A DNA stretch of 13,869 nucleotides from IMG/VR virus record IMGVR_UViG_2606217100_000003; one strand, 5' to 3'. Position 1 is the first letter of the stretch. Each line of letters begins with the position of its first letter. This document shows, one piece after another, positions 1 to 13,869 of this stretch. Source of the DNA: a virus (Duplodnaviria > Heunggongvirae > Uroviricota > Caudoviricetes). Below the pieces are notes generated by a model, which was given only the letters and a program-made list of their open reading frames with translations, had not been told where the DNA came from and did no database searches. A program made the translations under genes and the position numbers.

Positions 1-750
1 TCAGTCAATTGTTTTGTTTATTCCATCTGTGACGCCGATTATTTTCTCAAAATAATGAGATGGCGTGACACCATAATAATCTTTAAATGCACATATGAAA
101 TATGAAGTACTGTTATAGCCACATTTCTGGGCTACGACATTGATAGAATAAGAGTTTGAAGTTATGAGTTTTTTTGCATACCTCATCCTAGTATCTCTCA
201 ATATTTCAGTAAATGACGTTCCTTCATCCCTTAATCTTTTTTTTATTAAACTTTCACTCGTATAAATCAATTCCGCAATATCTTTTAAATGCCATTGCCG
301 CTCAATATTAAAACTGATTATTCCAGTAATTTTACAGGTAAATGTATTTATATTTGTTAGTATAAAAGAATTTACACTTTCGCGTTTTTTGAACATGGCA
401 AGTAAGGATATACATAGTCTTTCTTTTAACCAAAGGGAGTGTGAGTCTGCTATTTTAATCCCTTCAAACAGAGAAAAAACAAGCGATAATGGAGGTTCCT
501 CTTCAGCAATATAGCCATTCTTATCAAGAGTAAATTTGCCAGGCAGCTCATTATTCACGTCGATAAAAAAGGATAAACATGTTTTCTTATCTATATCAAC
601 AATTCTTAGTTTAGAGGGGCATACTGGTAACTCCCTTCTAATTTTGTCGCTTACAATAAACAATGAATTTTTTTTGAACGAGATAACTCTCCTGTTTATA
701 ATTAAATCAAATGATTGACAGATGAAAACTACGGAGCAAACATAATCCAT
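1..750 (-). CDS. appY: AraC-family transcriptional activator AppY
   Basis: 249-aa ORF with ATG at 750-748 and stop at the window edge. The protein matches my memory of E. coli AppY along its length, including the C-terminal AraC-type HTH region. In K-12 appY lies at the late end of DLP12. Confidence 0.85.
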
Positions 751-1295: not shown

Positions 1296-2459
1296 TTATG
1301 GTTGAATAAGCCACTCGATATCTGGTGCTACGGAAGTGTCCACACGGTTTAGCAGCACCCGATACTTTTTTCAGGCTTCCAGCAACGATCTTTCTTCCTC
1401 CGTTGCGATTTCCAGATCTACAGCATCCTGCAGTGGCGCAATATACGCACTGAATTCCTGGATGTAGAACTGTGTGGTGACGGTCTTCCAGCCATTCGGC
1501 TCCTGCTGTATTGAAGCATACCAGGCTGACGAAAACCAGAGAATGCCATCACGGGTCCAGATCCCGGTCTTTTCGCAGATATAACGGGCATCAGTAAAGT
1601 CCAGCTCCTGCTGGCGGATGACGCAGGCATTATGCTCGCAGAGATAAAACACGCTGGAGGGGTCATCCGGCGTCCATTTGAGGCCAAACGGCGTCTCTTT
1701 GTCGCCAAATTTAAGATACTGCTCCTCCCCGCAGTGCGGGCAGGCAACATGAAAACGCATAAAATGCGGGGATTCACTGGCTGCACGCTCAATCTGGCAG
1801 GTGCCTCTCACTTTGGGCGTGGAGCCACGGATGGACTTTGGCCAGACCGAGCCTTCAATACGTTTGTCGCCAAGGAACGTCGGAGAGCCTTCCTGTTCAA
1901 TATCCTCATCAAAGGCAGCAAGTTCATCATAACCCGCCACATCCACCGACTTTTCACGGTAGTTTTTTGCCGCTTTACCGCCCAGGCACCAGAAGCCACG
2001 CCCATTAGTGAAACGCTTCATGGTGAGCGTGTTATCCCGGTGCTTTTTGCCATACCACGGGGCCAGCGCCAGCAGCGACGGAATATCACGAATAGTCGGC
2101 TCAACGTGGGTTTTCATAAAGTTCTCGGCATCACCATCCGTCGGCAACCAGATAAGGGTGTTGCGCTGCTTATGCTCTATGAAGTAGGCATAAACACCCA
2201 ACAGCATTTTGGAATAACCAACACGGGCAGACTTCACCACATTCACCTCGCGGATGTAGTCGCTGCCCATCGCATTCATGATGGCCCGCTGAAAGGGCAG
2301 TGTTTCCCAGCGCCCTTCCTGGTATGCGGATTCTTTCGGGAGATAGTAATTAGCATCCGCCCATTCAACGGCGGTCTGTGGCTCCGGCCTGAACAGTGAG
2401 CGAAGCCCGGCGCGGACAAAATGCCGCAGCCTGTTAACCTGACTGTTCGATATATTCAC
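1296..2459 (-). pseudogene. Terminase large subunit (lambda gpA) N-terminal fragment fused to a tail-fibre-assembly (tfa) 3' fragment; aaaD/tfaD-like remnant
   Basis: The ORF 2459..1371 (GTG start, as in lambda A) matches lambda gpA from MNISNSQVNRLRHF through about residue 305 (GILWFSS). It then switches to a sequence matching the lambda Tfa C-terminal region (IAPLQDAVDLEIATEEERSLLEA). A TGA at 1373-1371 sits where Tfa has Trp, and the frame continues (KKYRVLLNRVDTS...) to TAA at 1298-1296. Confidence 0.8.
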
Positions 2460-2979
2460 TCAGCAACCCCGGTATCAGTTCATCCAGCGCGGCTGCTTTG
2501 TTCATGGCTTTGATGATATCCCGTTTAAGGAAATCAACATGTCGGTTTTCCAGTTCCGGAAAACGCCGCTGCACCGACAGGGGGATCCCGTCGAGAATAC
2601 TGGCAATTTCACCTGCGATCCGCGACAACACGAAAGTACAGAATGCGGTTTCCACCACTTCAGCGGAGTCTCTGGCATTCTTCAGTTCCTGTGCGTCGGC
2701 CTGCGCACGCGTAAGTCGATGGCGTTCGTACTCAATAGTTCCTGGCTGGAGATCTGTCTCGCTGGCCTGCCGCAGTTCTTCAACTTCCCGGCGCAGCTTT
2801 TCGTTCTCAATTTCAGCATCCCTTTCGGCATACCATCTTATAACGGCGGCAGAGTCATAAAGCACCTCATTACCCTTGCCACCGCCTCGCAGAACGGGCA
2901 TTCCCTGTTCCTGCCAGTTCTGAATGGTACGGATACTCGCACCGAAAATGTCAGCCAGCTGCTTTTTGTTGACTTCCAT
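2434..2979 (-). CDS. nohD: Terminase small subunit (lambda Nu1 homologue)
   Basis: 181-aa ORF with ATG at 2979, near-identical to lambda Nu1 as I recall it (MEVNKKQLADIFGASIRTIQNWQEQGMPVLRGGGKGNEVLYDSAAV...). Its 3' end overlaps the GTG start of the A fragment as in lambda. Confidence 0.9.
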   Translation of the reverse strand: MEVNKKQLADIFGASIRTIQNWQEQGMPVLRGGGKGNEVLYDSAAVIRWYAERDAEIENEKLRREVEELRQASETDLQPGTIEYERHRLTRAQADAQELKNARDSAEVVETAFCTFVLSRIAGEIASILDGIPLSVQRRFPELENRHVDFLKRDIIKAMNKAAALDELIPGLLSEYIEQSG

Positions 2980-3200
2980 TGTTCATTCCACGGCCAAAAA
3001 CAGAGAAAGGAAACGACAGAGGCCCAAAAGCTCGTTTTCAGCACCTGTCGTTTCCTTTCTTTTCAGGGGGTATTTTAAATAAAAACATTAAGTTACGACG
3101 AAGAAGAACGGAAATGCCTTAAACCGGAAAATTTTCATAAATAGCGAAAACCCGCGAGGTCGCCGCCCCGTAACCTGTCGGATCGCCGGAAAGGACCCGC
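2980..3200. other. cos packaging site (cosB-cosN-cosQ), lambda type
   Basis: The reverse complement of 2980-3168 reads like the first ~190 bp of the lambda genome (GGGCGGCGACCTCGCGGGTTTTCGCTATTTATGAAAATTTTCCGGTTTAAGGC...). The 12-nt cohesive-end sequence is at 3157-3168 (plus strand aggtcgccgccc). The adjacent cgtaacctgtcggatcgccgga matches the lambda right end (cosQ side). Confidence 0.8.
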
Positions 3201-3204
3201 AAAA

Positions 3205-3219
3205 TGATAATGATTATCA
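3205..3219. promoter_or_regulatory. Perfect 7-1-7 inverted repeat TGATAATgATTATCA (Fur-box-like), function unverified
   Basis: tgataatgattatca is a perfect palindrome matching the 7-1-7 Fur-box motif TGATAATnATTATCA. It lies about 150 bp upstream of the plus-strand small ORF/ybcV genes and just beyond cosQ. A near-identical palindrome is present at the lambda right end, so it may instead belong to the packaging region. Confidence 0.3.
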
Positions 3220-3367
3220 TCTACATGTCACAACGTGCATCTACGCCATCAAACCACGTCAAATAATCAATTATGACGCAGGTATCGTATTAATTGATCT
3301 GCATCAACTTAACGTAAAAACAACTTCAGACAATACAAATCAGCGACACTGAATACGGGACAACCTC

Positions 3368-3601
3368 ATGTCAACGAAGAACAGAACCCGCAGAACAACA
3401 ACCCGCAACATCCGCTTTCCTAACCAAATGATTGAACAAATTAACATCGCTCTTGATCAAAAAGGGTCCGGGAATTTCTCAGCCTGGGTCATTGAAGCCT
3501 GCCGCCGGAGACTGTGCTCAGAAAAAAGAGTTTCTCCTGAAGCAAACAAAGAAAAGAGTGACATTACTGAATTGCTCAGAAAACAGATCAGACCAGATTG
3601 A
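3368..3601 (+). CDS. Small basic protein with ribbon-helix-helix-like region (lambda right-end ORF homologue; ylcI/ybcW-like)
   Basis: 77-aa ORF with ATG at 3368. IRFPNQMIEQINIALDQKGSGNFSAWVIEACRRRL resembles an RHH (Arc/CopG-like) beta-strand plus two helices. The same coding sequence is present near the lambda right end as far as I recall. The SD is weak. Confidence 0.55.
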   Translation: MSTKNRTRRTTTRNIRFPNQMIEQINIALDQKGSGNFSAWVIEACRRRLCSEKRVSPEANKEKSDITELLRKQIRPD

Positions 3602-3657: not shown

Positions 3658-4068
3658 ATGGCTCAGGTTGCCATTTTTAAACAAATATTCGATAAAGTGC
3701 GAAATAATTTAAACTATCACTGGTTTTATTCTGAACTAAAACGTCACAATGTCTCACATTACATTTACTATTTAGCCACAGAGAATATTCATCTTGTTCT
3801 TGAAAACGATAATACGGTTTTAATAAAAGGACAGGGTAAGGTTGTAAATGTAAGATTTTCAAAAAATAAATGCCTTATAGAAGCCACCTTAAAAGGATTC
3901 AAATCAGGAGAGTTATCATTTTACGAATACAGGAAAAATCTTGCTACAGCAGGGGTTTTCAGATGGATTACAAATATCCACGAAAACAAAAGGTATTACT
4001 ATACCTTTGATAATTCATTACTCTTTACTGAGAACATTCAGAACACTACACAAATATTTCCGCACTAA
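3658..4068 (+). CDS. ybcV: DUF1398-family prophage protein YbcV
   Basis: ORF 3643..4068; the second ATG at 3658 has a good SD (ggaagg) and gives 136 aa, MAQVAIFK..., matching my memory of K-12 YbcV. It is on the strand opposite to the late genes, as in DLP12. Confidence 0.8.
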
Positions 4069-4113
4069 ATCATAACGTCCGGTTTCTTCCGTGCCAGAAC
4101 CGGACTCGCTGGC

Positions 4114-4278
4114 ATGATGAAATATGTGTACCCGGTAACCCCGGTGTGCATCGTTTTTGATTATTCCCACACACTCGCGCAGAAGGAGTTCCCCGTCGGG
4201 CTACGGTCTCTGTTAATACGGGAATACGGCGACGATACAGCGCATGATGTGTCAGGCTTGAATACCTTTATCCTTTAA
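4114..4278 (+). CDS. Hypothetical small protein (54 aa)
   Basis: Hand-translated ORF missing from the >=60-aa track: MMKYVYPVTPVCIVFDYSHTLAQKEFPVGLRSLLIREYGDDTAHDVSGLNTFIL, stop TAA at 4276-4278. It lies downstream of ybcV on the same strand; there is no homology evidence. Confidence 0.3.
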   Translation: MMKYVYPVTPVCIVFDYSHTLAQKEFPVGLRSLLIREYGDDTAHDVSGLNTFIL

Positions 4279-4324
4279 AAGGGATATCAGTTAAGTTATC
4301 CCGTGTAGGGTATAAGCCATTATC

Positions 4325-4353
4325 AAAGCCACTCTGTAGGAAGTGGCTTTTGT
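4325..4353 (+). terminator. Putative intrinsic terminator of the plus-strand ybcV operon
   Basis: Hairpin aaagccact / ctgtagga / agtggcttt (9-bp stem) followed by tgt; the U-tail is weak. Confidence 0.3.
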
Positions 4354-4559
4354 AATGGCAATAAAAAGCCCCGCGAATGCGAGGCTAAATCCTGGTATTT
4401 GTAATGACTGGCTCTTATCTCAACGCAGCCCCTTACCGCGCGCAAAATGCTCAATATCAAGCATCAGCAATGAGATGTTTAATCTGGATTCACTCCAGAA
4501 GTGAGCACCACCCTGTCTACAGAGCCAGATGTGAAGGATGATGAGTAAAATTATCGCTA

Positions 4560-5027
4560 TCATCGAAGGCATTGCGTCCTGATGTATTCCTGAAGCGTTC
4601 TCAGTGCTGTTTGGTCGCGGATAATTCCGTCCCGGATACCGAGAACGTTTCGTCCAGCAACTGGAGAGAGTTCGACGGTGGCATCATTGCCCATGCCGGA
4701 GGCGCTGGAGGTTTCGGCTGAGGATGGCACAGGGCATTTTCCTTTGACGAGCACCCGACCACCATTATCAAGCTTGCGCCGAAGAGCATCATTTTCAGCT
4801 TTCGCATCAGCTAACTCCTTCGTGTATTTATCATCGAGTGCATCAGCATCACGCTGGCGCTGCTGCATGTCAGTAATGGTGGCGTTCGCCTTCTCCAGTT
4901 CACTGGCCTTGTTATCGCGCTGTTCTTTGTAGGCGATTGCATTATCACGGTAATGATTAACAGCCCATGACAGGCAGACGATGATGCAGATAACCAGAGC
5001 GGAGATAATCGCGGTTACCCTGCTCAT
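4560..5027 (-). CDS. rzpD: Spanin inner-membrane subunit (Rz, i-spanin)
   Basis: The track ORF is 4560..5039; the likely start is ATG at 5027 ([30 protein letters not shown]..., as lambda Rz begins), overlapping the endolysin stop as ATGA. It has an N-terminal TM segment and a coiled-coil periplasmic domain. Confidence 0.85.
4601..4807 (-). CDS. rzoD: Spanin outer-membrane lipoprotein subunit (Rz1, o-spanin), embedded in the +1 frame of Rz
   Basis: 68-aa ORF fully inside Rz in another frame, with SD aaggag 7 nt upstream of ATG 4807. It has a lipoprotein signal ending in the lipobox-like VVGC and a proline-rich mature part ([11 protein letters not shown]), like lambda Rz1. Confidence 0.75.
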
Positions 5028-6309: not shown

Positions 6310-7392
6310 ATGAAAAAATTAACAGTGGCAATTTCTGCTGTAGCTGCATCAGTACTGATGGCGATGTCTGCTCAGGCAGCTGAAATTTATAATAAAGACA
6401 GTAACAAGCTGGATCTGTACGGGAAAGTTAATGCTAAGCACTACTTCTCCTCTAATGATGCAGATGATGGTGATACTACTTATGCCCGTCTTGGCTTCAA
6501 AGGTGAAACCCAAATCAACGATCAACTGACTGGTTTCGGTCAGTGGGAATATGAATTCAAAGGCAACCGCGCTGAATCTCAAGGTTCCTCCAAAGATAAA
6601 ACCCGTCTTGCCTTCGCTGGCCTGAAATTCGGTGACTACGGCTCCATCGATTATGGCCGTAACTACGGTGTAGCATACGATATTGGTGCATGGACCGACG
6701 TTCTGCCAGAATTCGGTGGCGATACCTGGACCCAAACAGATGTATTCATGACTGGTCGCACCACAGGTGTTGCAACTTATCGTAACAACGACTTCTTTGG
6801 TCTGGTTGATGGCCTGAACTTTGCAGCTCAGTATCAGGGCAAAAATGACCGAAAAGAAGTAACTGAAGCTAATGGCGATGGTTTCGGTTTCTCAACTACT
6901 TATGAGTATGAAGGATTCGGCGTGGGTGCAACCTATGCTAAATCTGATCGCACTAATAATCAGGTTATCTACGGTAACAACGGTCTGAATGCTTCTGGTC
7001 AAAATGCTGAAGTATGGGCAGCTGGTCTGAAATATGATGCGAACAACATCTATCTGGCCACCACCTATTCTGAAACCCAGAACATGACTGTTTTTGGTAA
7101 TAACCATATTGCCAACAAAGCACAAAACTTCGAAGCTGTTGCACAATATCAGTTCGACTTCGGCCTGCGTCCATCCGTTGCTTACCTGCATTCTAAAGGA
7201 AAAGACTTGGGTGTTTGGGGTGATCAGGACCTGGTTGAATATGTTGATGTAGGTGCAACCTATTACTTCAACAAAAATATGTCCACTTTTGTTGACTACA
7301 AAATCAACCTGATTGATAAGAGCGATTTCACGAAAGCATCTGGCGTTGCTACCGATGATATCGTTGCTGTAGGTATGGTTTACCAGTTCTAA
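6310..7392 (+). CDS. nmpC: Outer-membrane general porin, OmpC family (prophage NmpC/Lc-type), apparently intact
   Basis: 360-aa ORF with signal peptide [23 protein letters not shown], then [17 protein letters not shown]... and a C-terminal ...VGMVYQF ending in the terminal Phe typical of porins. It resembles OmpC throughout and is not interrupted by an insertion sequence. Confidence 0.9.
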
Positions 7393-10129: not shown

Positions 10130-10747
10130 TTAAAAAAGCGATAAGCTTTGCCCCGAATTCATCGGTAGTGGAGAGAAAGTAACATCACGTATTTGCTCCC
10201 CGAGCAGAAGAAACCTATCCAAGGGTAGCGGCGGTATCGTAGCAAACCCTGAAAGCCCCTTCTTTCTTGCAACATCTCTCGCATCCATAAGGATACGACC
10301 TAACACGTTCATACCATAAAAGTTACCTTCGGAGTCTTTACTAGCCCCCCAAAATTGGTCCTTCTCTGAGTGCTCAACAATGTCATGCTCTCCTGTGCTA
10401 TCCAGGAGCGCGAAAAACGATTCCCAGTTCTGGCAAAGCTTAACGCAGACACACCATTTCATTACCGAAACTCGATTTTTTTCCCAACCTGCACGGGTTT
10501 TAGCTTCGAAAGATCTGGCGGTTTGTTTAGCTTCATAAGGGTTGCCTTGGGTAATAATAGCCTTTTGGATATCTGGATAGTCTGGATATCGGCATGCTTG
10601 GTAAAGAATTTCACTCGATTGAATGGGTATACCATTAACTAAGAGCGGATATCCTTTGGCCATGTTGGAAAGACCACCCCATTTCTCGGTGGTTTTCCTG
10701 AAAGAAACTGTGTTGTGAAACAGGTATAGTCTATAGCTCATGATCAC
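10130..10747 (-). CDS. NADAR-domain protein (YbiA-like, DUF1768; predicted ADP-ribosyl/N-glycoside hydrolase)
   Basis: About 203-205 aa (GTG at 10747 or ATG at 10741 with SD ggtga). Three segments match E. coli YbiA as I recall it. GGLSNMAKGYPLLVNGIPIQSSEILYQACRY matches GDFSNFAAWPIKVDGKTWPTSEHYFQAQKF. WEKNRVSVMKW matches WESVKEQVMRK. IVEHSEKDQFWGA...NVLGRILMDAR matches LVEHTENDAYWGD...NRLGYLLMELR. Confidence 0.75.
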   Translation of the reverse strand: MIMSYRLYLFHNTVSFRKTTEKWGGLSNMAKGYPLLVNGIPIQSSEILYQACRYPDYPDIQKAIITQGNPYEAKQTARSFEAKTRAGWEKNRVSVMKWCVCVKLCQNWESFFALLDSTGEHDIVEHSEKDQFWGASKDSEGNFYGMNVLGRILMDARDVARKKGLSGFATIPPLPLDRFLLLGEQIRDVTFSPLPMNSGQSLSLF

Positions 10748-11763
10748 CGATTATACACATTACGCTTCATAAGTGGATACCAACAATCCAGAGCTCTATT
10801 TCCCGTTCGAAGATAAGTTCCCCACCAGTACGCTAGAGGGGTATTATTGGGGCAGTTTCTGAAAGTAAAGATAGTTCCACCAAACCCAACACCATTGAAA
10901 GTTGAAAAGCCTAAAGGCTTTATAGCATCAGAAGGATTTTGACTCTGACCAAGGATATCAAACCCAACTTTTGTCATAATTGCTTCAAAACGATCTCGTC
11001 TCTGCTCATTAGGGAAAAAATTATTCGCGACGTAACCGTCACGATATGTTCCTAAATAATGTACTTGACCGTCAGCCCATTCAGGTATTGATACACTTTG
11101 CGCTTTTGGCCAAAAAACCTCAGAACTCGAACTGTTTCGGCGTTGATTTTCAACAACTGCAAACTCACCACCATCAACGCAAACTGAAATATTCCTATCA
11201 GCAAATTTTCGTTCAAGTTGTTTTTTTATATTCCATGCTGAATACGTGTGCCCGCCTAAAAAGTACACCAATATTGTAATATTTTGGAGTTCAAAGTGCT
11301 CAATAAACCAAGTTAAATCATTGATTGCCTTAGCTCCTGAGAATGAAACATCGTCAAGGTAAATAAATTCACGGAATGAACTAACTCTTTGACGTTGTGA
11401 CAGTCTGGTCACAACGTTGAATTCTTCTACACAATCTTCGCGAAGCAAATCCAAAAACTCAGATTGACTGGTGCCTTGGTTCTGGATATCGAGAAACGCT
11501 GCGGTTTGAAAGAACCTTTCATTTTGCTCATCATTGGCGATACTACTAATAACTCTGCGATAGTCGCTCTCAGAGAAGTATCCAATCCCCATTAATCGGT
11601 CCGTTTCCTCTAAGACAAATCGCCTATCGGTTAACTCAAATTGATTAATCCATCGATTAACATGATCAATGCTCATGCCACCTTGAGGAGGGTTTCGATA
11701 GTCATTTAATTTAGTAGCAATTTGCCCCATAAGATCACGATCTGTAACATTGCTATAACACAT
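10744..11763 (-). CDS. Uncharacterised 339-aa protein with weak phosphoribosyltransferase-like motif; first gene of the NADAR operon
   Basis: ATG at 11763 with SD agga; its stop TGA (10746-10744) overlaps or abuts the NADAR start. The central FIYLDDVSFSGAKA loosely fits the type-I PRTase PRPP-binding signature (hydrophobic x4, DD, small residues, G). No other family was recognised. The gene is low in GC. Confidence 0.7.
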   Translation of the reverse strand: MCYSNVTDRDLMGQIATKLNDYRNPPQGGMSIDHVNRWINQFELTDRRFVLEETDRLMGIGYFSESDYRRVISSIANDEQNERFFQTAAFLDIQNQGTSQSEFLDLLREDCVEEFNVVTRLSQRQRVSSFREFIYLDDVSFSGAKAINDLTWFIEHFELQNITILVYFLGGHTYSAWNIKKQLERKFADRNISVCVDGGEFAVVENQRRNSSSSEVFWPKAQSVSIPEWADGQVHYLGTYRDGYVANNFFPNEQRRDRFEAIMTKVGFDILGQSQNPSDAIKPLGFSTFNGVGFGGTIFTFRNCPNNTPLAYWWGTYLRTGNRALDCWYPLMKRNVYNR

Positions 11764-11966: not shown

Positions 11967-12602
11967 TCATACACTTGCTCCTTTCAGCCCAAACTTAGCT
12001 TTGATTTCTGCGATCTTCGCCAGAGCCTGTGCACGATTTAGAGGTCTACCGCCCATAACAGGAAGTTGTTTTACTGGTTCAGGTATCGTCTCACCACGGT
12101 TAATTCGCGCTGTCATACAGGTCAGTTCATCGGCAGCCTTGCGCCGTAATTCCGCATCAGTAAGCGCATTGGCCCGCATGTTCTGGTACAGGTTGGTAAC
12201 CAGCCAGTAGTGCGCGTTTGATTTCCATGGATAAGACTCTGCGTCCGGATACAGGCCACGCTTCCGGCAATACTCGTAAACCATATCAACCAGCTCGCTG
12301 GCGTTTGGCAGCCCGGCGGTAACGGATGCTTCTTCCCGGCACCAGGCAACAAACTGCCCGGGTGATGGCAGGAATGGTCGATTCTGCCGACGGGCTACGC
12401 GCATTCCTGCGTTAACCTGTTCCATTGTGGTGATCCCGTTTTCCCGGAAAGCCAGAACCCACTGGCGGCGGATTTCGTTCAGTTCGTTCTGATCCCGGTT
12501 AGCCAGGCTCGCAGGGAAAGTTGCCAGTAACTGGCTGAACACACCGTTGATGATCTGCGCTACCTGCTGTACAGGCAACACGTAAAGATCCAACCAAGCC
12601 AA
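11967..12602 (-). CDS. Replication protein P homologue with replaced N-terminus (P')
   Basis: 211-aa ORF; from VQQVAQIINGVFSQLLATFPASLANRDQNE... to the C-terminal ...AKFGLKGASV it matches lambda P as I recall it. The first ~11 residues (MAWLDLYVLPV) are unrelated. TTG start at 12602 is preceded by SD aaggag. Confidence 0.8.
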   Translation of the reverse strand: MAWLDLYVLPVQQVAQIINGVFSQLLATFPASLANRDQNELNEIRRQWVLAFRENGITTMEQVNAGMRVARRQNRPFLPSPGQFVAWCREEASVTAGLPNASELVDMVYEYCRKRGLYPDAESYPWKSNAHYWLVTNLYQNMRANALTDAELRRKAADELTCMTARINRGETIPEPVKQLPVMGGRPLNRAQALAKIAEIKAKFGLKGASV

Positions 12603-12705
12603 AATCTCCTTACCTCACAACACGGCAAGCCTGCATTGCGGCGCTTCAGTCTCCGCTGCATACTGTCCAGGTGAGCGCGGGTGATGGCATAACAGAGGAA
12701 AGAAA

Positions 12706-13869
12706 ATGTCACTCTTCCGCAGAAATGAAATATGGTATGCCTCGTATTCGCTCCCGGGCGGGAAACGAATTAAGGAATCTCTTGGCACAAAGGACAAGCG
12801 GCAAGCTCAGGAGTTGCACGACAAGCGAAAAGCAGAACTCTGGCGAGTAGAAAAGCTAGGGGATTTACCTGATGTCACTTTTGAAGAGGCCTGCCTAAGA
12901 TGGCTTGAGGAAAAAGCTGATAAAAAATCTCTCGATTCAGATAAAAGCCGGATTGAGTTCTGGCTTGAACATTTTGAGGGTATAAGGCTTAAAGATATCT
13001 CGGAGGCAAAGATTTACTCTGCTGTAAGCAGAATGCATAACAGAAAGACGAAAGAAATATGGAAACAGAAAGTTCAGGCCGCCATCAGGAAAGGTAAAGA
13101 ACTGCCTGTTTATGAACCAAAGCCAGTATCAACTCAGACAAAGGCAAAGCATCTTGCCATGATAAAGGCCATTCTCCGTGCTGCAGAACGCGACTGGAAG
13201 TGGCTGGAAAAAGCGCCTGTCATCAAGATACCAGCGGTCAGAAACAAGCGAGTCAGATGGCTGGAAAAGGAGGAAGCAAAACGCCTTATTGATGAGTGCC
13301 CCGAACCACTGAAATCTGTCGTCAAGTTTGCGCTGGCAACTGGTCTGAGAAAGTCGAACATCATAAATCTGGAATGGCAACAAATCGACATGCAGCGACG
13401 AGTTGCCTGGGTGAATCCAGAAGAGAGCAAATCAAACCGCGCCATTGGTGTGGCGCTGAACGATACCGCCTGTAAAGTGTTGCGTGATCAAATAGGCAAG
13501 CATCACAAATGGGTGTTTGTACATACCAAGGCGGCTAAGCGAGCAGATGGAACATCAACGCCTGCGGTCAGGAAGATGCGCATCGACAGCAAGACATCAT
13601 GGCTATCAGCTTGTCGTCGTGCAGGAATTGAAGATTTCCGTTTCCATGACCTCAGACACACCTGGGCAAGCTGGCTGATTCAGTCAGGCGTCCCATTATC
13701 AGTGCTTCAGGAAATGGGCGGATGGGAGTCCATAGAAATGGTTCGTAGGTATGCTCACCTTGCGCCTAATCATTTGACAGAGCATGCGAGGAAAATAGAC
13801 GACATTTTTGGTGATAATGTCCCAAATATGTCCCACTCTGGAATTATGGAGGATATAAAGAAGGCGTAA
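12706..13869 (+). CDS. intD: Prophage tyrosine integrase
   Basis: 387-aa ORF with SD gaggaaag. Tyrosine-recombinase motifs are present: TGLRKSN (box I Arg), HDLRHTWAS (His-x-x-Arg) and VRRYAHL (catalytic Tyr). It matches my memory of DLP12 IntD; argU and the att site should lie just beyond the window end. Confidence 0.9.

Follow-up and report, generated by a model that had tools for sequence, protein, structure and literature searches.

The stretch of DNA analysed, referred to here as the window, is 13.9 kb in length and is a 100% match to Escherichia coli SW071614 (NZ_CM129856.1). The locus is the DLP12 cryptic prophage, which extends from argU-intD to appY in the opposite orientation to the K-12 map. 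In the late region, read from high to low coordinates, are quuD, an intact porin gene, essD, rrrD and a lysis gene, followed on the opposite strand by a DUF1398 gene and a ylcI-like gene. The non-coding stretch holding the cos site comes next, then nohD. Downstream of nohD are a truncated terminase large-subunit gene, a tfa remnant, an AT-rich spacer and appY. Beyond appY, within approximately 51 kb, the host chromosome carries ompT, envY, ybcH, nfrB, a vgr/PAAR island, cus, pheP, nfsB and the ent/fep cluster. The positions of the features are given in Table 1.

Table 1. Position, strand and lambda equivalents of features in the window
Feature	Window position	Strand	Description
appY	1..750	-	RefSeq annotation; first host-type gene in the predicted packaging direction
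tfa remnant	1371..1526	-	In-frame fusion to the gpA fragment; Pfam Caudo_TAP at residues 332-362
Truncated large terminase subunit gene	1527..2459	-	gpA residues 1-311: Nu1-binding N-terminus and ATPase domain
nohD	2434..2979	-	Small terminase subunit, Nu1 homologue, intact at 181 aa; RefSeq name nohD
Non-coding stretch	2980-3367		Between the ylcI-like gene and nohD
cosB R1	3004..3019	-	Lambda 151-166; accessory TerS site; 16/16 identical
cosB R2	3045..3060	+	Lambda 109-124; 16/16 identical; inverted relative to R3 and R1
cosB I1	3078..3095	-	Lambda 74-91, unchanged; IHF site between R3 and R2
cosB R3	3104..3119	-	Lambda bp 50-65; TerS site; 15/16 identical, G54A at window 3115
IHF-consensus match between cosN and R3	3127..3139	-	Lambda 30-42, unchanged; 2 mismatches to WATCAANNNNTTR in both
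cosN	3155..3170	-	12-nt cohesive end GGGCGGCGACCT (3157-3168) plus 2 bp on each side; identical to lambda 48501-14
cosQ GGGTCCT	3192..3198	-	Exact match to lambda 48473-48479, with lambda spacing from cosN
ylcI-like gene	3368-3601	+	DUF3950
Porin gene	6310-7392	+	Annotated ompC-like; nmpC equivalent

The DLP12 variant in the window is approximately 15.5 kb (argU to ompT) and the K-12 element is much larger at 21.3 kb. At 11967-13869 intD abuts a fragment of replication protein P which is missing its N-terminus, indicating that the entire xis-exo-immunity-O region was deleted. The porin gene is a 360-aa intact ORF, unlike K-12 nmpC, which is annotated as a split pseudogene. At 10130-11763 on the minus strand a PRTase-CE gene (PF24390, E=5.9e-39) adjoins a NADAR-domain gene (PF08719). 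This pair gave weak PADLOC matches to PRTase_III-A and PDC-M42C and is a candidate module for anti-phage defence; it lies between the P fragment and ybcN, in the early region of DLP12.

Terminase genes of the remnant

NohD was 98% identical to lambda Nu1, the differences being K48R, A75T and L132I, and Pfam Phage_Nu1 was matched across the whole profile (E=2.4e-101). Residues 1-47 were identical to lambda Nu1, including the recognition helix (residues 17-24 of TerS) and the wing (residues 31-39) (PMC9026076). Apart from K48R the DNA-binding domain was identical in the two proteins.

The ORF at 1371-2459 (minus strand, 362 aa) begins at the GTG of lambda gpA, and its overlap with the end of nohD is exactly as in lambda. 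When the gpA fragment was aligned to residues 1-312 of lambda gpA using BLASTP, 310 of 312 residues were identical. Pfam detected GpA_ATPase and then Caudo_TAP in this ORF and no nuclease domain. The terminase large subunit (TerL) is therefore represented by gpA residues 1-311 only, lacking the C-terminal endonuclease domain of the full-length protein. RefSeq lists both fragments as pseudogenes, with the gpA gene missing its C-terminus and the tfa pseudogene placed at 1296-1463. Self-packaging by the locus is impossible because the TerL nuclease domain and the head genes are absent. These results agree with an earlier note on this DNA, which had described nohD as apparently intact, the large terminase subunit as a fragment fused to a tfa remnant and the locus as unable to package itself.

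The nohD gene and the gpA fragment were 98.7-98.8% identical to lambda and close relatives. The exact gpA(1-311)::tfa junction beside appY was present in 3 of 5426 complete E. coli genomes, suggesting a recent, lineage-specific deletion. This deletion would have removed all head and tail genes and fused the large terminase gene, at codon 311, to the 3' end of the tfa gene. Six substitutions in 1527-2979 (minus strand) were private to the window relative to lambda, K-12 DLP12 and phages PhiR42_1 and PhiR34_1. All six were synonymous (two in nohD, four in the gpA fragment), and with n=6 they may predate the deletion.

K-12 DLP12 is the same prophage at the same argU/appY locus, with an intact noh beside a truncated morphogenesis block ending in tfa. 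The deletion end-point differs: the K-12 aaaD pseudogene is 309 bp whereas gpA in the window reaches residue 311. In the Qin prophage no gpA is left. Three independent remnants (window, K-12 DLP12 and Qin) thus have an intact cos and noh with the head/tail block deleted, and the deletions, with differing end-points, rejoin within or just before tail-fibre/tfa genes.

The cos site compared with lambda

The reverse complement of the window was aligned to lambda with its ends joined (NC_001416). Up to and including p=137, lambda position p lies at window position 3169-p, and beyond this at 3170-p. On the minus strand, window 2980-3200 was identical to lambda in 213 of 222 aligned columns. The nine differences from lambda were 48471 A>G, 48486 T>C, 54 G>A, 73 A>G, 102 T>C, 134 G>A, a deletion of 138, 145 T>G and 176 T>G. 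G54A, in R3, is the sole difference falling within a named cos subsite. The subsites are those of lambda in the same order, orientation and spacing, with cosQ, cosN, I1, R2 and R1 exact matches; the window cos is distinguished by the R3 substitution and a 1-bp deletion between R2 and R1.

The gap between cosQ and the cohesive end was 23 bp, equal to that of lambda. The cosN subsite was taken as 16 bp as previously defined (PMC9026076). The combined pattern of cosQ and the cohesive end occurred once in the window, compared to 0.01 expected in shuffles. In I1 the matches to the IHF consensus at lambda 79-91 (1 mismatch) and 74-86 (2 mismatches) were both kept, and the nearest substitutions, at lambda 73 and 102, were outside these matches. 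R1 is 1 bp nearer to R2 because lambda bp 138 is deleted, and this deletion is common to the window, K-12 DLP12, PhiR42_1 and PhiR34_1. No indels were present between lambda bp 1 and 137, so the spacing from cosN to R3 is preserved. This spacing is critical, as a 3-bp deletion is already severely defective (PMC9026076).

R3 is the critical TerS binding site (bp 50-65) with a TerS contact zone at bp 55-63, and changes in R3 known to impair packaging are at bp 56, 58 and 59 (PMC9026076). The altered bp 54 lies outside the contact zone and is absent among the known deleterious positions. On all of these sequence-level criteria the window cos is a complete lambda-type cos. The cosQ-cosN-cosB region had been described in the earlier note as canonical and lambda-like, and the base-by-base alignment confirmed this.

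The G54A allele was found in other phages. Phage PhiR42_1 (PV340562) carries every difference seen in the window between cosQ and the start of nohD, including G54A. It encodes a full-length gpA and a full-length Nu1, the latter being 100% identical to the NohD of the window. The viability of PhiR42_1 is taken from its GenBank record, which gives a complete genome and a named propagation host. An exact scan of IMG/VR with a 27-mer containing G54A recovered 64 contigs, of which 62 had cosQ and cosN in place. A 641-aa gpA was located immediately downstream of the G54A cos in 17 of the 64 contigs and a further 12 run off the end of the locus. In 13 of the 64 a 181-aa nu1 is followed by gpA ORFs ending at 71, 84, 296, 354, 367, 494, 546 or 661 aa. 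An intact TerS beside a broken TerL therefore recurs, although some of these may be assembly frameshifts. G54 is conserved across R1, R2 and R3 of lambda, so some loss of affinity is possible from G54A. The R3 variant of K-12 DLP12 is C53T and not G54A. The window cos is predicted from its sequence to be competent for a terminase of lambda specificity.

Lambda-type cos sites are common in E. coli. Of 5426 complete genomes, 3997 contained at least 80% of a 221-bp query; the median was 2 places per genome and the maximum 8. The second cos of K-12 is upstream of nohA in Qin and is 99.5% identical to the window cos. The Qin cos is nearer to the window cos than the DLP12 cos of K-12 is. To the right of the window cos, 3201-3490 includes the 5' part of the ylcI-like gene and differs very little from the right end of lambda (48180-48470), which has no annotation. 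This likeness indicates that the minus strand of lambda has a ylcI remnant or an unannotated homologue.

Predicted start and end of packaging at the window cos

In the helper/passive-prophage assay of Feiss a lytic helper supplies terminase in trans, and the cos on which it acts belongs to a chromosomal prophage that is repressed and does not replicate (PMC4669245). Packaging runs to the next cos and 1-4 virions are formed per cell, corresponding to nearly every chromosome copy (PMC4669245). Specificity in this assay is the match between cosB and TerS (PMC4669245). On lambda cosB the yield per induced cell was 1.75 for lambda, 0.45 for N15 and 8.1e-4 for phage 21 (PMC4669245, Table 6). Based on these published yields a helper of lambda or N15 specificity should initiate efficiently at the window cos and phage 21 should not. 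Phage 21 had been put forward as a helper together with lambda; it was rejected, its specificity being more than 1000-fold worse than that of lambda on cosB-lambda (PMC4669245).

The window locus is like the Feiss assay in that a lytic helper would provide the terminase for a cos carried by a repressed prophage of the chromosome. It differs in that the assay used tandem prophages with a second cos one genome length downstream, whereas the window locus has none. Terminase stays on the cosB-bearing end and translocates from cosN through cosB. The polarity from cosN through cosB to Nu1 points to lower coordinates in the window, and the packaging direction towards appY given in the earlier note was therefore correct.

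For the terminal cut, cos-type terminases depend on a second cos; tails cannot be attached when DNA is left sticking out of the head (PMC6687093). No cosN-like site was found 9.8-59.8 kb downstream in the source genome using the 17-bp cosN core with up to 3 mismatches. The 50 kb scanned runs through nfrB, the vgr/PAAR island, cus, pheP, nfsB and entD-fepA-fes-entF to cstA. No cosN-like site was found 0-6.2 kb downstream, a region comprising appY, ompT, envY and ybcH. A cos between 6.2 and 9.8 kb would lie much too near to end a headful. The source genome contained no second lambda-type cos/nu1/A copy. The cos-nohD-gpA segment matched one place only, so a resident helper of the same specificity is also lacking. 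Cos-to-cos packaging via a second cos was rejected on these grounds, as none was present 9.8-59.8 kb downstream or elsewhere as a cos/nu1/A copy. What remains is a one-cos substrate, with a single usable cos, unexcised, and no cos of the same specificity within approximately 38-51 kb downstream.

Only the fragment of replication protein P is left of the replication module, so in situ amplification is absent. In DNA of purified lambda particles from a K-12 lysogen, the reads of host origin lay "almost exclusively" at lambda and its 25-kb flanks; that study did not examine DLP12 specifically, and reads in the shared 3.3 kb map ambiguously (PMC7667829). Initiation at the window cos is plausible and productive mobilisation of neighbouring genes should be rare, efficient mobilisation being unlikely with no terminating cos. 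Cutting and packaging by a compatible helper, as proposed in the earlier note, are supported at the initiation step, which has precedent in trans (PMC4669245), but not at termination, as no terminating cos was found downstream. The mobilisation route for neighbouring host genes proposed there is weakened by the lack of both a second cos and a replication module.

The expected product, a filled head with one cos, would have a counterpart in lambda. The lambda doc (one-cos) particles start at a chromosomal cos and are packaged one way into host DNA with no terminating cos, as would be expected here. In lambda docL particles this one-ended packaging into host DNA reportedly occurs. These particles are non-infectious unless trimmed, and DNase trimming of one-cos packaging products can yield transducing activity. 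The label "dead-end" for one-cos packaging is therefore only relative. In the excision-defective lysogens that produce doc particles the lambda prophage replicates in place and provides terminase and heads itself, whereas DLP12 does neither.

Other defective elements, which have no terminase of their own, are packaged in trans as whole units. Sp4 of O157 Sakai is packaged by the Sp14 terminase via a shared cos (PMC2669165), and Gram-negative PICIs with cos sites are packaged by the terminase of another phage (PMC9026076). Sp4 and the cos-type PICIs excise and amplify, unlike the window remnant, which has no replication module. PICIs encode Rpp to redirect TerS. The cosB of the window is an ordinary lambda cosB, neither a distinct PICI sequence nor of the Rpp-dependent type. 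The window has intD but only the P fragment, and excision with autonomous replication is not indicated. PICI-like excision and packaging of the approximately 15.5-kb element was rejected due to the absence of a replication module, the lambda-type cosB and the non-excision of DLP12 in K-12.

Interpretation of the retained cos and nohD

The locus is probably a DLP12 leftover consisting of a cos and nohD, in which the cos is usable for starting packaging, leads to a one-cos dead-end product and takes part in recombination with phages. The cos retains cosN, R3 at the proper spacing, I1, R2 and R1, which is all that lambda terminase needs for initiation. The cosQ site, required for terminating packaging, is also retained. 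During growth of a phage of lambda or N15 specificity, gpNu1/gpA terminase and host IHF would bind cosB and nick cosN. Terminase would remain on the end with nohD, and DNA translocation would proceed towards appY, ompT, cus and ent/fep. With no second cos within a headful and no replication the head would fill without a specific terminal cut. At most this would yield particles with one cos and no tail, which would be largely non-infectious.

A consequence better supported than mobilisation is that cutting at cos stimulates recombination with lambdoid phages entering the cell. K-12 DLP12 and lambda share 3353 bp at 98% identity, in which R/Rz and nu1/A are "separated by the cos site" (PMC3945230). 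Recombinants of lambda with DLP12 were approximately 100-fold commoner than those with Rac or Qin (De Paepe et al. 2014, PMC3945230). The junction was immediately adjoining cos in 10 of 19 lambda-DLP12 recombinants, and all recombinants were active, including ones carrying DLP12 nu1, R or Rz (PMC3945230). The authors suggested that the high recombination "might" be due to double-strand breaks at cos "in both lambda and Dlp12" (PMC3945230). Infecting phages can acquire cos, nu1, R and Rz from DLP12 of K-12 and remain viable. The hotspot in K-12 is indirect support for cutting of the DLP12 cos in vivo. It was verified that DLP12 does not excise during lambda infection of K-12 (PMC3945230).

The lone DLP12 cos could instead serve effectively as a starting point from which a helper transfers appY, ompT, cus and ent/fep, in a manner like lateral transduction. 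The intact cos and its correct polarity are consistent with this, as are the classical docL particles. With a lambda-type cos in 3997-4591 of the 5426 complete E. coli genomes, any effect would extend to many strains, and initiation in trans at chromosomal cos sites is efficient (PMC4669245). However, a terminating cos is absent within a headful and protruding DNA blocks the joining of tails (PMC6687093). Without a replication module one substrate copy per chromosome would compete with hundreds of helper genomes. K-12 DLP12 also does not excise during lambda infection (PMC3945230), and host reads in lambda particles were almost exclusively at lambda and its flanks (PMC7667829). Effective transfer from this locus is therefore considered unlikely. 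Somewhat less likely again is that the cos is inert and not used in vivo, for example if G54A in R3 or the chromosomal context prevents terminase assembly, and is too young to have decayed. The rarity of the exact junction suggests a recent deletion, and the 98.7-98.8% identity to lambda and relatives fits recency or gene conversion and not maintenance. The conservation of G54 in all three R sequences of lambda also agrees with an inert site. Against this, the same cos allele is found in the deposited phage PhiR42_1 and beside intact terminase operons. The K-12 DLP12 allele, with its R3 change at bp 53, works in lambda recombinants (PMC3945230), and chromosomal context is no bar to use by a helper (PMC4669245).

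It is very improbable that the locus is a domesticated interference module, in which NohD and the ATPase-only gpA fragment poison a superinfecting terminase and the chromosomal cos acts as a decoy. The gpA fragment keeps the Nu1-binding N-terminus, and nohD is intact beside a truncated gpA in the window, K-12 DLP12 and Qin. The 13 IMG/VR contigs with the same cos allele and a 181-aa nu1 beside variously cut gpA ORFs would fit such a role, as would the synonymous nature of all six window-private substitutions, but that pattern comes from six sites and could be older than the deletion. Being 98% identical to lambda Nu1, and identical to the Nu1 of a phage, NohD would be expected to complement and not to poison. 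Late transcription in lambda requires Q antitermination, and nohD, at the end of a Q-dependent late operon, would be expected to be poorly expressed. The PADLOC match of NohD ("mad1") spans the generic N-terminal HTH only. The gpA fragment had no match in the PADLOC scan, leaving a defence role unsupported. Lambda growth is normal on K-12 carrying DLP12 and Qin (PMC3945230). Nothing indicates a host function for the cos-nohD segment. Unlike the cos of lambda, that of the window lies in a chromosomal remnant that does not replicate and has neither a functional TerL nor capsid genes. A leftover usable for initiation and recombination remains the preferred explanation.

The cos and nu1 of DLP12 are already documented in K-12, and the window is a rare deletion variant (3 of 5426 genomes). 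Cos phages are textbook non-generalised transducers. It is unlikely, but conceivable, that the cos sites of cryptic prophages are specificity-gated launch pads at which nearly every chromosome copy is cut when a phage of lambda or N15 specificity infects the cell, with some one-cos heads trimmed and tailed to give directional transfer of approximately 50 kb. If launch from a cryptic cos were followed by maturation of some particles, cos phages would gain a directional route for approximately 50 kb of chromosome. Among the genes moved here would be ompT, the cus genes for copper/silver efflux and those for enterobactin. As 74-85% of complete E. coli genomes have a lambda-type cos, gene flow by this route would be both general and overlooked. 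K-12 holds two such cos sites (DLP12 and Qin) and is thus a clean, cheap test system. The locus illustrates that defective prophages keep functional cos and Nu1 modules and that infecting lambdoid phages recombine with them.
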